From a virus (Duplodnaviria; Heunggongvirae; Uroviricota; Caudoviricetes), in the IMG/VR virus record IMGVR_UViG_2534681764_000006, positions 1 to 4,087 of that record: a stretch of DNA of 4,087 bases, one strand, 5' to 3'. The translations under genes and the position numbers were made by a program. Position 1 is the first letter of the stretch; every line of letters begins with the position of its first letter. Under the pieces are notes generated by a model, which did not search any database, was not told the DNA's origin, and worked only from the letters and a program-made list of their open reading frames with translations. This document shows positions 1-4,087 of the stretch, piece by piece.

Positions 1-162
1 GATAACATCCCACTTCGAACCATAACCGCGCTGATGACGGGATTGTCCTGGCTTGTATTGCTTCCAGCCTTCGCTTTTGTGGCTTTCGCAGTAGCCTGAC
101 GGGTCTGTCGTGGTATTACGGCAGCCGCGAACGCGGCAGGCTTTTGGAGTTCGAGGGGGCAT
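1..162 (-). CDS. HNH endonuclease, N-terminal 54 codons only; the gene continues beyond the left edge of the window
   Basis: Minus-strand ATG at 162..160 preceded by AGGA about 8 nt upstream; open to position 1. Translation MPPRTPKACRVRGCRNTTTDPSGYCESHKSEGWKQYKPGQSRHQRGYGSKWDVI shows the Cys-x2-Cys / GYC-x2-H / RGYG-x2-W pattern typical of phage HNH endonucleases found next to terminase genes. Not in the supplied ORF track because it is truncated by the window edge. Confidence 0.75.
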   Translation of the reverse strand, partial: MPPRTPKACRVRGCRNTTTDPSGYCESHKSEGWKQYKPGQSRHQRGYGSKWDVI

Positions 163-188: not shown

Positions 189-461
189 CTATTTGACTGC
201 TGCCAGCAAAGCGTTACGGCGCATCTCGATACTTCGAATCCCCGCTTTGTCAATATTGCATTGTCCCAACGCCGAAAGCAGGCTCACATTCAGATCCAGA
301 CTGGCCCCATAGGTCAGCGGCTCGGGAATGACTGGCTGGGGAGTTTCAGTAGTCAGGCTTGCTGGCAACGGTACCGCCGGAATCGGTACGTAAACTGTTC
401 GCGTACTTCCGCAACCGGTCAGCAGCGGCAGCAGGCACATGACGTGAAGCACAATCATCAT
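189..461 (-). CDS. o-spanin (Rz1-like outer-membrane lipoprotein), starting inside the Rz gene in the +1 frame and extending past the Rz stop
   Basis: Within track ORF 189..713, Met85/Met86 (ATG at 461..459 and 458..456) begin MMIVLHVMCLLPLLTGC, a signal peptide with lipobox LTGC. The mature part is proline-rich (CGSTRTVYVPIPAVPLPASLTTETPQPVIPEPL...) and has a C-terminal Cys. The ORF part upstream of Met85 overlaps Rz out of frame and is probably not translated. The start codon is uncertain: the SD is weak, and in-frame CTG/TTG codons lie just upstream. Confidence 0.5.
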   Translation of the reverse strand: MMIVLHVMCLLPLLTGCGSTRTVYVPIPAVPLPASLTTETPQPVIPEPLTYGASLDLNVSLLSALGQCNIDKAGIRSIEMRRNALLAAVK

Positions 462-738
462 CCGCAACAGCCACTTTGATATCTTCCTGGGTTCTCTGTG
501 ACTCCAGTGCGATCTGCTGTTTTGCATGCTGGTTAGCCTCCAGAACTGTATTGACGATTTGCAGTGATTGCAGAACGTTACGGGTAATGGCAGTTGCTGA
601 TTCAGCATTTCGTACAGCCTCATCAGCACGCTCCTTTTCGTGCTGATATTTGCTGTAGTAATGCCCGGCAGACCAGATGAAGGAACCAATGACGGTAACA
701 ACGAAGGCAACAATAACCAGCTTATATCTCAGCTTCAT
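346..738 (-). CDS. i-spanin (Rz-like, N-terminal TMD plus coiled-coil periplasmic domain); not the lambda Rz sequence family
   Basis: ATG at 738..736 with GGTGGGG 7 nt upstream; the start overlaps the last 17 nt of the endolysin gene. N-terminus MKLRYKLVIVAFVVTVIGSFIW is a single TMD, followed by a charged Q/E/A-rich helical region and a C-terminal Cys. The position directly after the endolysin, with an embedded +1-frame lipoprotein ORF, fits a spanin. Confidence 0.7.
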   Translation of the reverse strand: MKLRYKLVIVAFVVTVIGSFIWSAGHYYSKYQHEKERADEAVRNAESATAITRNVLQSLQIVNTVLEANQHAKQQIALESQRTQEDIKVAVADDDCASRHVPAAAADRLRKYANSLRTDSGGTVASKPDY

Positions 739-1198
739 TTACTACCCCACCAGCTTTTTTAAATCGGGCAATCAGGTCACCGATTTTATGTTCATACTGA
801 CCGTAACCTGCACCAGGTAACGACGCCCAGATATTGCTGCAACGGTCGATTGCCTGACGAATACTGCCGCGGTCAATCATCGGTAAAGCACCACGCTCTT
901 TAATCTGCTGCAGAGCTACAGCGTCCTGGCTTTCTGGAGAAAAATCTTTCAGGCCAAGCTGTTTACGGTAAGCATCCCACCAGCGTGAAAGAAGCTGGTA
1001 ACGTCCGGCGGCTGTTGATTTGAGTTTGGGGTTTAGCGTGACAAGTTTGCGAGGGTGATCGGAGTAATCAGTGAACAGTTCGCCACCAACAATAACATCA
1101 TAACCGTGGTTTCTGGTTTTCTGCCGTCCGTTATCTGTTCCTTCTGACCATGCCACCATATCAAGGAAAGCTTTACGCTGGGAATTAAGTGTCTGCAT
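722..1198 (-). CDS. R: Endolysin, lambda R-type lytic transglycosylase
   Basis: 158-aa translation MQTLNSQRKAFLDMVAWSEGTDNGRQKTRNHGYDVIVGGELFTDYSDHPRKLVTLNPKLKSTAAGRYQLL... is nearly colinear with phage lambda R as I recall it, including the AWSEGTD segment that holds the catalytic Glu. ATG at 1198..1196 with AAGGAG about 6 nt upstream, embedded in the last holin codons. Identity was not checked by search. Confidence 0.93.
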   Translation of the reverse strand: MQTLNSQRKAFLDMVAWSEGTDNGRQKTRNHGYDVIVGGELFTDYSDHPRKLVTLNPKLKSTAAGRYQLLSRWWDAYRKQLGLKDFSPESQDAVALQQIKERGALPMIDRGSIRQAIDRCSNIWASLPGAGYGQYEHKIGDLIARFKKAGGVVNEAEI

Positions 1199-1201
1199 TA
1201 A

Positions 1202-1561
1202 TTACTCCTTATGGGCACCGAACTTGTTACCGATTACTCGCATTGCCGCCCCACGAATAGCATCAACACCAATCAGCCCCACCCCACCACCAATGGCAAC
1301 AGAAAGCGATTTAGGCCATCCGACATACTCAAGAGCGGATGCAAAGGTCAGCGTCAGAGCGCCACATAGCAAAATCTCGAGCGTTTTTCGCTTCCAGCCA
1401 CCACCACCGCCAAAATAGGCGATGCGCAAACCAGCCATAACGATCGACATAATCACTGCACCCAGCGGAGTGTCTCCACGCCACCAGCTCTGAAACAACT
1501 CCAGCCAGTCCGGCCAAGTATTTGGGTTATGAGGCATTTCATCATCTCTCACCTCGCACAT
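1202..1561 (-). CDS. Holin, three predicted TMDs (class I, lambda S-like topology); possible dual start at Met1 (1561) and Met9 (1537)
   Basis: Three hydrophobic segments (LGAVIMSIVMAGLRIAYF, LEILLCGALTLTFASALEYVGW, LSVAIGGGVGLIGVDAI) and a charged C-terminal tail (RGAAMRVIGNKFGAHKE). Sits immediately upstream of the endolysin with a 3-nt gap (stop TAA at 1204..1202). Two in-frame ATGs lie 8 codons apart; GAGGTGA lies between them, 13 nt upstream of the second. Confidence 0.85.
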   Translation of the reverse strand: MCEVRDDEMPHNPNTWPDWLELFQSWWRGDTPLGAVIMSIVMAGLRIAYFGGGGGWKRKTLEILLCGALTLTFASALEYVGWPKSLSVAIGGGVGLIGVDAIRGAAMRVIGNKFGAHKE

Positions 1562-1582
1562 ATCGCGGGTGCAAATTGAGGG

Positions 1583-1621
1583 AATAAAAAATCCCCGAAT
1601 ATTCCAGGAGCGGAAACGGGG
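1583..1621 (-). terminator. Terminator-like or leader structure about 20 nt upstream of the holin start (two-tier hairpin plus U-tract)
   Basis: Minus-strand RNA CCCCG-U-UUCC-GCUCCU-GGAA-UAUU-CGGGG followed by AUUUUUUAUU. The outer 5-bp GC stem encloses an inner 4-bp stem; the loop is large, so terminator efficiency is uncertain. It could instead be a structure controlling holin translation. Confidence 0.3.
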
Positions 1622-1657
1622 AAAGGCGTTGCACTAATTGGGCCTGTCTGCGGCCTT

Positions 1658-1685
1658 AAATAAAAAACCCCGGCAAATGCCGAGG
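1658..1685 (-). terminator. Rho-independent terminator in the late leader (candidate tR')
   Basis: Minus-strand RNA CCUCGGC-AUUU-GCCGGGG followed by UUUUUUAUUU: a 7-bp stem with one G.U pair, a 4-nt loop and a U6 tract. The G.U pair would be a C/A mismatch on the plus strand, so the structure is specific to the minus strand. Confidence 0.65.
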
Positions 1686-1905
1686 TCAGTTAATCGTTGC
1701 CGCTGTGAGTGCCGCGGCGCACTATCTCTTTATCAGGCCACTTACGCGTTAAACCGGGTGCTAACCGTAACTCAGTGATGCTTTACGCTTCCTCTCCCTC
1801 ACTACGTCGCAATTGGAGCCCGGCCAGATTAACGCTGTCGTCACGTTGCCAATATATGGCATCCAATGCATTCTTTTTATTTAGCTATTTCATTTTTCTA
1901 TCCGT

Positions 1906-1937
1906 CAGAAACAACAAAACCCGCTCAATGGCGGGTT
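1906..1937 (-). terminator. Rho-independent terminator about 85 nt downstream of the Q-like gene stop (candidate tR' or early-transcript terminator)
   Basis: Minus-strand RNA AACCCGC-CAUUGA-GCGGGUU followed by UUGUUGUUUCUG: a 7-bp stem, a 6-nt loop and a U-rich tail. Confidence 0.6.
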
Positions 1938-1939
1938 CT

Positions 1940-2024
1940 GGTAAAGTTCATGCGCTTGATTCGCCTCGCGATACAGCTTTGCGAAGCGTACCGGAATTGA
2001 AGCAGTTTATGCGTAAAAAATCAA
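1940..2024 (-). promoter_or_regulatory. Candidate late promoter (pR'-like) and Q-engagement region immediately downstream of the Q-like gene
   Basis: On the minus strand, TTGATT (2024..2019, overlapping the TGA stop), a 17-nt spacer, then TTCAAT (2001..1996). The -10 hexamer is weak, so this is positional inference from lambdoid architecture (Q, then pR'/qut, then tR', then the lysis genes). Confidence 0.25.
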
Positions 2025-3520: not shown

Positions 3521-3733
3521 CTAACAGGATGCTCTGACTCGCAATTCATCCAGCAGTTTATCATTTCCCATAATGTCACTTACCCTCATCGGTAAAAAAA
3601 TTGCCTTTCGACCATTACGATACATCATTGATTTTGGGATTTCAGGGAAGTAATCCATTTCGACTATAACTGACAGGTCATCACGACGTATGACTGCGTA
3701 TTTGCTACTAAATAGTTTCTTTATTTTTTCCAC
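3521..3733 (-). CDS. Small hypothetical protein (about 70 aa) in an AT-rich moron-like insert; probable GTG start
   Basis: The track ORF 3521..3772 begins at a GTG with no SD. An in-frame GTG at 3733..3731 is preceded by CCTGGAGG with a 4-nt spacer, giving (M)EKIKKLFSSKYAVIRRDDLSVIVEMDYFPEIPKSMMYRNGRKAIFLPMRVSDIMGNDKLLDELRVRASC. No TMD and no family that I recognise. The region is visibly more AT-rich than the flanking genes. Confidence 0.45.
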   Translation of the reverse strand: MEKIKKLFSSKYAVIRRDDLSVIVEMDYFPEIPKSMMYRNGRKAIFLPMRVSDIMGNDKLLDELRVRASC

Positions 3734-3813
3734 GATGCCTCCAGGTTTATAAGTACAAAAGGTTATATCCACATAGAGACAAAAATATTAATCTGAAAAA
3801 TATTTATTTCACG

Positions 3814-3886: not shown

Positions 3887-3915
3887 TTATTTTTCACCCT
3901 GCGTATTCAGCGCGC

Positions 3916-3940
3916 AACAAAAAACCCGCCGAAACGGGTT
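3916..3940 (-). terminator. Rho-independent terminator after the upstream gene (nin-region tR-type terminator)
   Basis: Minus-strand RNA AACCCG-UUUCGG-CGGGUU followed by UUUUGUUG: a GC-rich stem with a U-tract, about 70 nt downstream of the stop codon at 4011..4009. Confidence 0.6.
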
Positions 3941-3979
3941 AAGCGCGGGTGCGTTGAGGATGCCTGACTCATCAGAGGT

Positions 3980-4001
3980 GGCGAGGGATTTCTCCCTCGC
4001 C
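3980..4001. other. Stable 9-bp stem-loop (GGCGAGGGA-loop-TCCCTCGCC) with no U-tract, 8 nt downstream of the upstream gene's stop
   Basis: Plus 3980..3988 GGCGAGGGA pairs perfectly with 3993..4001 TCCCTCGCC across a 4-nt loop. It lies in the 3' UTR of the minus-strand gene, upstream of the terminator. Confidence 0.5.
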
Positions 4002-4008
4002 TAGTCTC

Positions 4009-4087
4009 TTACTCCTCAGGTTCGTAAGCTGTGAAGACAGCGACCTCCGTCTGGCCGGTTCGGATTCGTACCTCGCAGAGGTCTTTC
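4009..4087 (-). CDS. 3' end of an upstream minus-strand gene (last 25 codons plus stop); identity unknown, possibly a nin-region gene
   Basis: The frame with codons starting at 4086 reads ...KDLCEVRIRTGQTEVAVFTAYEPEE then TAA at 4011..4009, using common codons. The other two minus frames are rich in rare AGG/AGA/CGA codons. The C-terminal pattern loosely resembles RusA-type resolvase C-termini, but 25 residues are too few to assign. Confidence 0.45.
   Translation of the reverse strand, partial: KDLCEVRIRTGQTEVAVFTAYEPEE

Follow-up and report, generated by a model that had tools for sequence, protein, structure and literature searches.

The overlapped architecture, for which LysB/LysC of phage P2 is the prototype, was the commonest class in the survey of Kongari et al. 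(2018), accounting for 228 of the 528 two-component spanins. In the supplement of that survey, Shigella phage SfV is entered as 'ovl', with the i-spanin at 36089-36482, the o-spanin at 36300-36639, and an overlap of 182 nt. The SfV products are listed there as 130 and 112 aa, with a mature o-spanin of 74 aa assigned to the o-spanin family 'Mu', and the COILS entry for the SfV i-spanin gives one coil at residues 30-61. In P2-like Burkholderia phages, mature LysC-type o-spanins are 72-74 aa long and contain approximately 9.5% proline (PMC3091744). The annotation of P2 LysB/LysC reads 'nonessential; affects timing of lysis'.

We analyzed a stretch of viral DNA of 4,087 nt (the window), in which every gene lies on the minus strand. 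Positions 1-1572 showed 97.5% DNA identity to SfV, where S, R, Rz, and Rz1 are annotated. Approximately half of the E. coli complete genomes matched this region, and 358 of them hold most of it. The window almost certainly comes from an SfV-like lambdoid prophage and contains its lysis cassette, with an overlapped two-component spanin of the Mu/SfV family. The gene pair, its architecture, and its family are already known, as they are annotated in SfV and catalogued by Kongari et al. (2018). The features were as follows.

4087-3900, minus strand: 3' part of hokD and terminator
3772-3521, minus strand: small ORF, function unassigned
3449-2850, minus strand: DUF1367/NinB-like gene
2850-2560, minus strand: YbcO-type nuclease gene
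2563-2021, minus strand: DUF1133 Q-like antiterminator gene
Between the Q-like gene and the lysis cassette: non-coding late-promoter/terminator region
1202..1537, minus strand: holin S of the lambda holin family, 111 aa (Pfam Phage_holin_3_1, E = 3e-27; TIGR01594, E = 1.5e-37)
722..1198, minus strand: endolysin R, lambda-type transglycosylase, 158 aa (phrog_90 endolysin; 88% amino acid identity to lambda R)
346..738, minus strand: Rz-like i-spanin, DUF2570, 130 aa, ATG at 738 (phrog_214, Pfam DUF2570)
537..541, minus strand: GGAGG Shine-Dalgarno sequence within Rz codons L66-E67-A68, 9 nt upstream of ATG 527
189..527, minus strand: o-spanin precursor, LysC-type Rz1, 112 aa from ATG 527 (Pfam PF23793)
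411..422, minus strand: lipobox L-T-G-C (CTG ACC GGT TGC), from reading of the sequence
258..260, minus strand: second, periplasmic Cys of the o-spanin (precursor Cys90, motif GQCN), from conservation
1..162, minus strand: 5' part of an HNH endonuclease gene (SfV orf53), ATG at 162-160, from SfV and E. coli annotations

On the minus strand, the cassette thus runs in the order S holin, R endolysin, i-spanin, and o-spanin, with the holin and endolysin genes immediately upstream of the spanin pair. The 3' end of R overlaps the start of the i-spanin gene by 17 nt, and the o-spanin stop is followed after 26 nt by the start of the HNH endonuclease gene, which is context only. The holin could also be read as 119 aa from an in-frame upstream ATG at 1561, but SfV and PGAP annotate the 111-aa form. 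It shared 25% identity with lambda S and is annotated as S in SfV. An Rfam scan gave no match inside the coordinates of the spanin pair. SfV (NC_003444; Rz at 36090-36482 and Rz1 at 36301-36639), together with SfIV and SfII, carries essentially the same genes. The 97.5% DNA identity to SfV takes in S, R, Rz, Rz1, and the beginning of the HNH gene, with a few point differences, and SfV agrees with the window in the protein lengths (130 and 112 aa), the 182-nt overlap, and the 17-nt R/Rz overlap. Upstream of S the two differ: the window has the DUF1133 Q, YbcO, DUF1367, and hokD genes, whereas SfV has methyltransferase and Q genes.

The i-spanin matched phrog_214 'Rz-like spanin' with an E-value of 1.2e-46, and its match to Pfam PF10828 (DUF2570) was marginal, at 27.7 bits against a cutoff of 26.6; we therefore placed it in DUF2570/PHROG 214. 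An N-terminal transmembrane helix was located at residues 7-25 (window 664-720; Kyte-Doolittle peak 2.29), preceded by K2, R4, and K6. The protein has one cysteine, Cys96 (453-451). The AF2 model, with a mediocre mean pLDDT of 64, consists of a helix at 3-93, a break at DDDC96ASRHVP, and a helix at 103-118. A simple heptad count gave 12 of 18 hydrophobic a/d positions in the best register, and the coiled-coil call leans on the AF2 helices and on the COILS entry for SfV. Neither spanin matched an NCBIfam model. When profiles of the two proteins were searched against PDB sequences, no relative of solved structure emerged; the top hit, with E = 0.21, was spurious.

The second ORF ends at 189, 157 nt beyond the Rz stop at 346. 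Relative to Rz, either candidate start (461 or 527) puts it in the +1 frame, since the distances of 277 nt (738-461) and 211 nt (738-527) are each 3n+1. The overlap with Rz amounts to 182 nt from ATG 527 or 116 nt from 461, and the alternative starts ATG 461/458 would give precursors of 90/89 aa. The o-spanin matched Pfam PF23793 (LysC) with 64.4 bits and E = 9.3e-18 over profile positions 2-66 of 69 (gathering threshold, 27 bits) and phrog_456 with E = 4e-27. NCBI/PGAP names its relatives 'lysC: Rz1-like lysis system protein LysC'. By rule-based reading, the lipobox is LLTG/C, with Cys39 predicted to be the lipidated first mature residue and Gly at +2. Counted from this Cys, the mature o-spanin has 74 aa and 10.8% proline, while lambda Rz1 counted likewise has 41 aa and 24% proline. 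AF2 predicted a helix at 73-111 (pLDDT 85-90), which contains Cys90, behind a disordered proline-containing linker. The secondary structures predicted for the two proteins are consistent with a spanin pair. This second Cys was invariant in an alignment of 22 sequences and is also present in the Mu o-spanin.

These properties bear on an earlier note made from the sequence alone, which had described an overlapped, not embedded, spanin pair with a long o-spanin. This description was confirmed, the coordinates and arithmetic of the note were correct, and its estimate of a mature Rz1 of about 74 aa against about 40 aa in lambda agrees with the counts above. The signal peptidase II site that it proposed to predict was read at 422-411. 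It had placed the beginning of the lipoprotein frame at 461 in the +1 frame; the frame was correct, but the start probably was not, as ATG 527 is favored (see below). Regarding classification, the topology, the lipobox without Asp at +2, the gene overlap, and the position in the cassette all correspond to an overlapped two-component spanin (Summer 2007; Kongari 2018). The extension beyond Rz separates the pair from the embedded architecture of lambda Rz/Rz1, and the presence of two frames in 88/88 loci having both genes separates it from unimolecular or fused spanins. Given the mature lengths listed for SfV and described for the P2-like Burkholderia phages, the 'long' o-spanin is the norm for the LysC/Mu-SfV family and not an oddity.

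The proteins of phage Mu were homologous to both spanins. The Mu i-spanin (gp23) showed 26% identity over 119 aa (E = 9e-11) and the Mu o-spanin 48% over 75 aa (E = 9e-21). Mu shares with the window the overlapped architecture, the LLTGC lipobox, the GQCN Cys, and the i-spanin motif C..R.VPA.AADRLR; it differs in its endolysin, in a shorter conventional signal peptide (MMQKKK...), and in the C-terminal tails. P2 LysB/LysC has the same gene architecture as the window pair. P2 LysC scored 64.9 bits with the same Pfam PF23793 that gave 64.4 bits for the window o-spanin, and the two proteins have similar mature lengths (~72-76 aa) and proline contents (~10-12%). Unlike the window proteins, P2 LysC has several extra Cys residues and P2 LysB has no DUF2570 match. 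Pairwise BLASTP of the window spanins against P2 LysB and LysC was not significant for either, so P2 is linked to the window pair solely through the Pfam LysC model. Lambda Rz/Rz1 resembles the window pair in its position after S and R, in the combination of a type II inner-membrane protein with a predicted outer-membrane lipoprotein, in the +1 frame, and in presumed function. In contrast to the window o-spanin, lambda Rz1 is wholly embedded in Rz and has no predicted helix, and the lambda pair falls into other Pfam families. The lambda models PF03245 (Rz) and PF06085 (Rz1), with which the lambda proteins score 183 and 72 bits, were unmatched by the window proteins. As the earlier note had stated, the Rz here is not lambda Rz: the two showed only a weak similarity, with 28% identity across a 47-aa segment that takes in the transmembrane region. 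The similarity of the o-spanin to lambda Rz1 was confined to the signal peptide and the first mature residues.

To characterize conservation, 93 related loci were collected from IMG/VR contigs and from genomes sampled at one per species, and SfV and an E. coli prophage were added; a scan of genome contigs gave 9 loci, 4 of which were useful as distant relatives. Three loci were left out of the o-spanin scan and the diversity counts, namely a deletion fusion with a NinB-like gene (L011), a lambda-type Rz (L012), and an unrelated protein (L013). One with Rz fused to a different 3' tail (L041) was left out of the diversity counts only. Rz was exactly 130 aa long in 86 of the 93 gathered loci. A +1-frame ORF crossing the Rz stop was present in all 88 loci examined, and each of them kept the lipobox Cys (LLTGC, LLSGC, or QLSGC). 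The second Cys, in a GQCN-type motif, was kept in the o-spanin variants listed from related loci. The two-frame arrangement was conserved in close and distant relatives, extending to Buttiauxella, Pantoea, and other Enterobacterales with only 54-62% Rz identity.

Nucleotide diversity was calculated at Rz codon positions 1/2/3 from 45 unique DNAs. In the Rz-only part it was 0.132/0.080/0.203, with the third position of Rz the most variable. In the overlap, overall variation was lower (0.130/0.093/0.073), and position 3 of Rz, which is position 2 of the o-spanin, became the most constrained. Beyond the Rz stop, the values were 0.409/0.143/0.091, and the most variable position was the third position of the o-spanin (position 1 of Rz). 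Synonymous codon differences at conserved Rz residues among six divergent lineages fell from 49% in codons 1-70 to 11% in codons 71-92, 18% in codons 93-115, and 9% in codons 116-130. Therefore, the Rz and o-spanin frames are both under purifying selection, and the locus is a clean textbook case of dual-frame purifying selection. The checks suggested by the earlier note, namely an alignment showing whether two frames are conserved, coding-type conservation in both, and retention of the lipobox Cys, all came out in favor of two genes.

The earlier note had also offered a frameshifted single spanin gene, with the two frames being halves of an ancestral ORF broken in the window copy. Some observations seem to invite this reading: of the 176 positions of the phrog_214 profile, 7-131 match Rz and 133-175 match the C-terminal part of the o-spanin, a few database proteins of 174-184 aa bear both DUF2570 and LysC domains, and PGAP calls the DUF2570 gene a pseudogene 'missing C-terminus' in some genomes. 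However, the fused proteins P0126, P0225, and P0191 (182, 184, and 174 aa) are singletons, each with an internal signal peptide, and the joint lies after Rz residue 83, 101, or 55, respectively. The different points of fusion indicate independent indels or sequencing errors, and the existence of such proteins explains why the phrog_214 tail resembles the o-spanin C-terminus. The locus flagged by PGAP encodes an intact 130-aa Rz identical to that of the window, and protein clusters of exactly 130 aa number in the hundreds. Set against the 86 loci with a 130-aa Rz, the separate +1 ORF with a lipobox in all 88, and the constraint on both frames in the overlap, a frameshift has practically no chance of being correct. 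From the two-frame conservation, the switch in codon-position diversity, and the singleton fusions, we rejected it. We gave no credence at all to the opposite reading, in which the i-spanin is the sole gene and the +1 frame is open merely by chance. The +1 frame is indeed open over almost the entire Rz in the window (180 codons), which shows that long out-of-frame ORFs can arise at this locus without coding throughout. Nevertheless, a chance ORF is contradicted by the LysC match (E = 9e-18), by the diversity past the Rz stop, which at Rz1 position 3 exceeds that at positions 1 and 2, by the invariant lipobox and second Cys, and by the homology with the Mu o-spanin.

We next considered the start of the o-spanin, on which database annotation is divided between 112-aa and 90/92-aa forms. 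ATG 527 is probably the main start. It is preceded by GGAGG with a spacing of 9 nt, and the arrangement GGAG(G)-N9-ATG was conserved despite variation in the spacer and in codons 2 and 3 of the o-spanin frame. Glu67 of Rz was encoded by GAG in 41 of 41 unique DNAs, although neighboring synonymous sites were variable. His71 was CAT in 40 of them, TAT in the remaining one, and CAC never, so that ATG 527 was always kept. Codon by codon among the six divergent lineages, no synonymous differences occurred at Rz codons 65-67, which contain the Shine-Dalgarno sequence, or at codon 71, which carries the ATG; the spacer codons 68-70 between them showed normal levels. Differences were present at codons 72, 73, and 75 but absent throughout codons 76-87. 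In distant relatives, stop codons close the +1 frame just upstream of ATG 527.

The competing view, that translation starts at ATG 461/458 with a signal peptide of 16-17 aa and that 527-462 is conserved as a very constrained Rz motif or as the translation-initiation region for 461, appears unlikely. It would avoid the 38-aa signal peptide that ATG 527 implies, which is unusually long for a lipoprotein, and some NCBI annotations use the 461 start for 90-aa 'peptidase' or 92-aa hypothetical proteins. The Met-Met at 461/458 was kept in 41 of 41 unique DNAs, with Asp93-95 always GAT and never GAC. Against it, the n-region from 461 (MMIVLH...) has no basic residue and no recognizable Shine-Dalgarno sequence stands before it. 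A conserved Shine-Dalgarno sequence and ATG flanking a variable spacer are what a genuine start would show, suppression of synonymous change in Rz sets in already at codon 71, and the +1 frame of distant relatives is closed just upstream of 527. In the Mu o-spanin, moreover, a normal n-region with KKK is encoded ahead of the position equivalent to 461, and Kongari et al. give the SfV o-spanin as 112 aa. The remaining weight falls on the use of both starts, which may occur. RNA structure was considered as the cause of the low synonymous variation in 527-462 and was rejected, as the fold was no stabler than shuffled controls (z = 0.41).

With ATG 527 as the start, it can be proposed tentatively that SfV-like o-spanins carry a 38-aa signal peptide whose basic, His-rich n-region of 22 residues is under strong selection of its own. 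The n-region has the consensus MxxSRSHWSHREPRxISKxLLR and is encoded where the i-spanin gene is most conserved. If this proposal is true, the extension might delay or gate export of the o-spanin, or might couple o-spanin and i-spanin synthesis; alternatively, two starts (527 and 461) might yield two precursor forms. The comparative evidence for this long conserved signal-peptide extension from ATG 527 is the only mildly new point of the analysis. Overall, the locus has little discovery value, and the practical gains are the argument for ATG 527 and a point of annotation: RefSeq treats this very common E. coli/Shigella prophage module inconsistently, in that an intact i-spanin is sometimes called a pseudogene and the o-spanin is given either of two starts or the names 'hypothetical' or 'peptidase'.

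Here, a mode of action can be proposed by analogy with the lambda Rz/Rz1 work (Berry et al. 2008, to the extent that it is cited in PMC3091744; reviewed in PMC6139136), and it is transferred between proteins with no detectable homology beyond the membrane signals. The i-spanin would be anchored in the inner membrane by residues 7-25, with its helical domain in the periplasm. The o-spanin would be exported, cleaved by signal peptidase II at LLTG/C, lipidated on Cys39, and then sorted to the outer membrane, as would be expected because its +2 residue is Gly and not Asp. The periplasmic ends of the two proteins may bind to each other, giving a periplasm-spanning complex. After release of the endolysin by the holin and degradation of the murein, this complex would fuse or disrupt the outer membrane and complete lysis. 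Rz C96 and o-spanin C90 probably form homodimer disulfides, as in lambda.

The junction between R and the spanin pair was also investigated. The earlier note had described the adjacent R as nearly lambda R and had proposed a mosaic joint inside the lysis cassette. At the protein level, the 88% identity bears out the resemblance, but the wording was somewhat generous, since the DNA identity was 83.8% and confined to 747-1180, ending at both edges of R. For other lambdoid phages, matches to the window were limited to R or to S plus R, and in distant relatives of the spanin pair the preceding endolysin is an unrelated protein of 179 or 204 aa. The end of lambda homology at the edges of R and the other endolysins of distant relatives indicate that the R/spanin module boundary is real. 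In each of the 82 close relatives, defined by an Rz identity of 82% or more, the lambda-type R was likewise 158 aa long and overlapped the beginning of Rz by 17 nt. As judged from these comparisons, the lambda-like R beside a non-lambda spanin is a real but old mosaic; the proposed joint holds at the family level and is not specific to the window copy, because the linkage is common to all 82 close relatives. A more recent joint was observed within the part of the tail that encodes the o-spanin only, where E. coli prophages sharing the Q/nin region of the window at ~95% identity lose homology below positions 256-332. Among the relatives, the C-terminal tail of the o-spanin after CNxDKxxIR varied in both sequence and length.

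The start of the o-spanin was examined through synonymous change in the i-spanin reading frame among six divergent lineages. Synonymous change was reduced from codon 71 of the i-spanin gene onward (window 463-546, minus strand), and fell to zero at codons 76-87 in these lineages. In the same stretch, a GGAG(G)-N9-ATG motif, whose ATG lies at 527, was conserved. Together, the synonymous suppression and the conserved motif imply that the o-spanin would carry a signal peptide of 38 aa, with a conserved, basic, and His-rich n-region (SRSHWSHREPR).

At the other end of the gene, homology to the window ended below positions 256-332 in E. coli prophages with an approximately 95%-identical Q/nin region, the genes upstream of the lysis cassette. 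This loss of homology indicates that a recombination joint lies inside the tail that encodes the o-spanin only (window 189-332, minus strand), in agreement with an o-spanin C-terminal tail that varies from one relative to another. In the related loci L005/L006 (Shigella flexneri CP182557), the i-spanin variant (Rz, 2001-2435) was 144 aa with a differing Ser/Asn-rich C-terminal tail, and the o-spanin had a shorter tail, its mature form being 66 aa and its end 91 nt past the Rz stop. Therefore, the extent of the overlap varies within the spanin family.

The overlapped pair was also inspected in database annotation. The i-spanin of L002, the related locus in E. coli strain 165 (NZ_CP020509), is intact, with 130 aa and a DUF2570 match; where it overlaps lysC, RefSeq/PGAP labels it as a pseudogene, 'incomplete; missing C-terminus':
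L002 4469-4738, equivalent to part of window 346-738: DUF2570 i-spanin flagged as pseudogene
In other genomes, the o-spanin from the 461 start is named 'hypothetical protein' or 'peptidase'. The pseudogene flag and these names are annotation artefacts of overlapped genes.

Outside the spanin pair, the following features were located in the window, those of hokD as annotated in an E. coli prophage of 95% identity:
4009-4087, minus strand: 3' part of the hokD type I toxin gene
within 3900-4087, minus strand: hokD 3' UTR and terminator, after the gene
3521-3772, minus strand: 83-aa ORF matching phrog_1813 (unknown function; E = 2e-34)
1562-2020, minus strand: 460-nt non-coding stretch separating the holin from the Q-like gene
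The sole Rfam match on 3900-4087 was isrK at 3919-4000, which was sub-threshold (26.9 bits; gathering score, 50), and the 83-aa ORF had no Pfam or NCBIfam match. The non-coding stretch presumably comprises the late promoter and the Q-utilisation/terminator region. The hairpin at 1911-1939 was 90% identical over 29 nt to a stretch of Shigella phage SfV that overlaps the putative rho-independent terminator placed downstream of Q in that phage's annotation; the hairpin is one of the terminator-like hairpins seen within 1562-2020. The adjacent holin ORF (1202-1561, minus strand) has an in-frame ATG at 1561, eight codons upstream of the annotated start at 1537.
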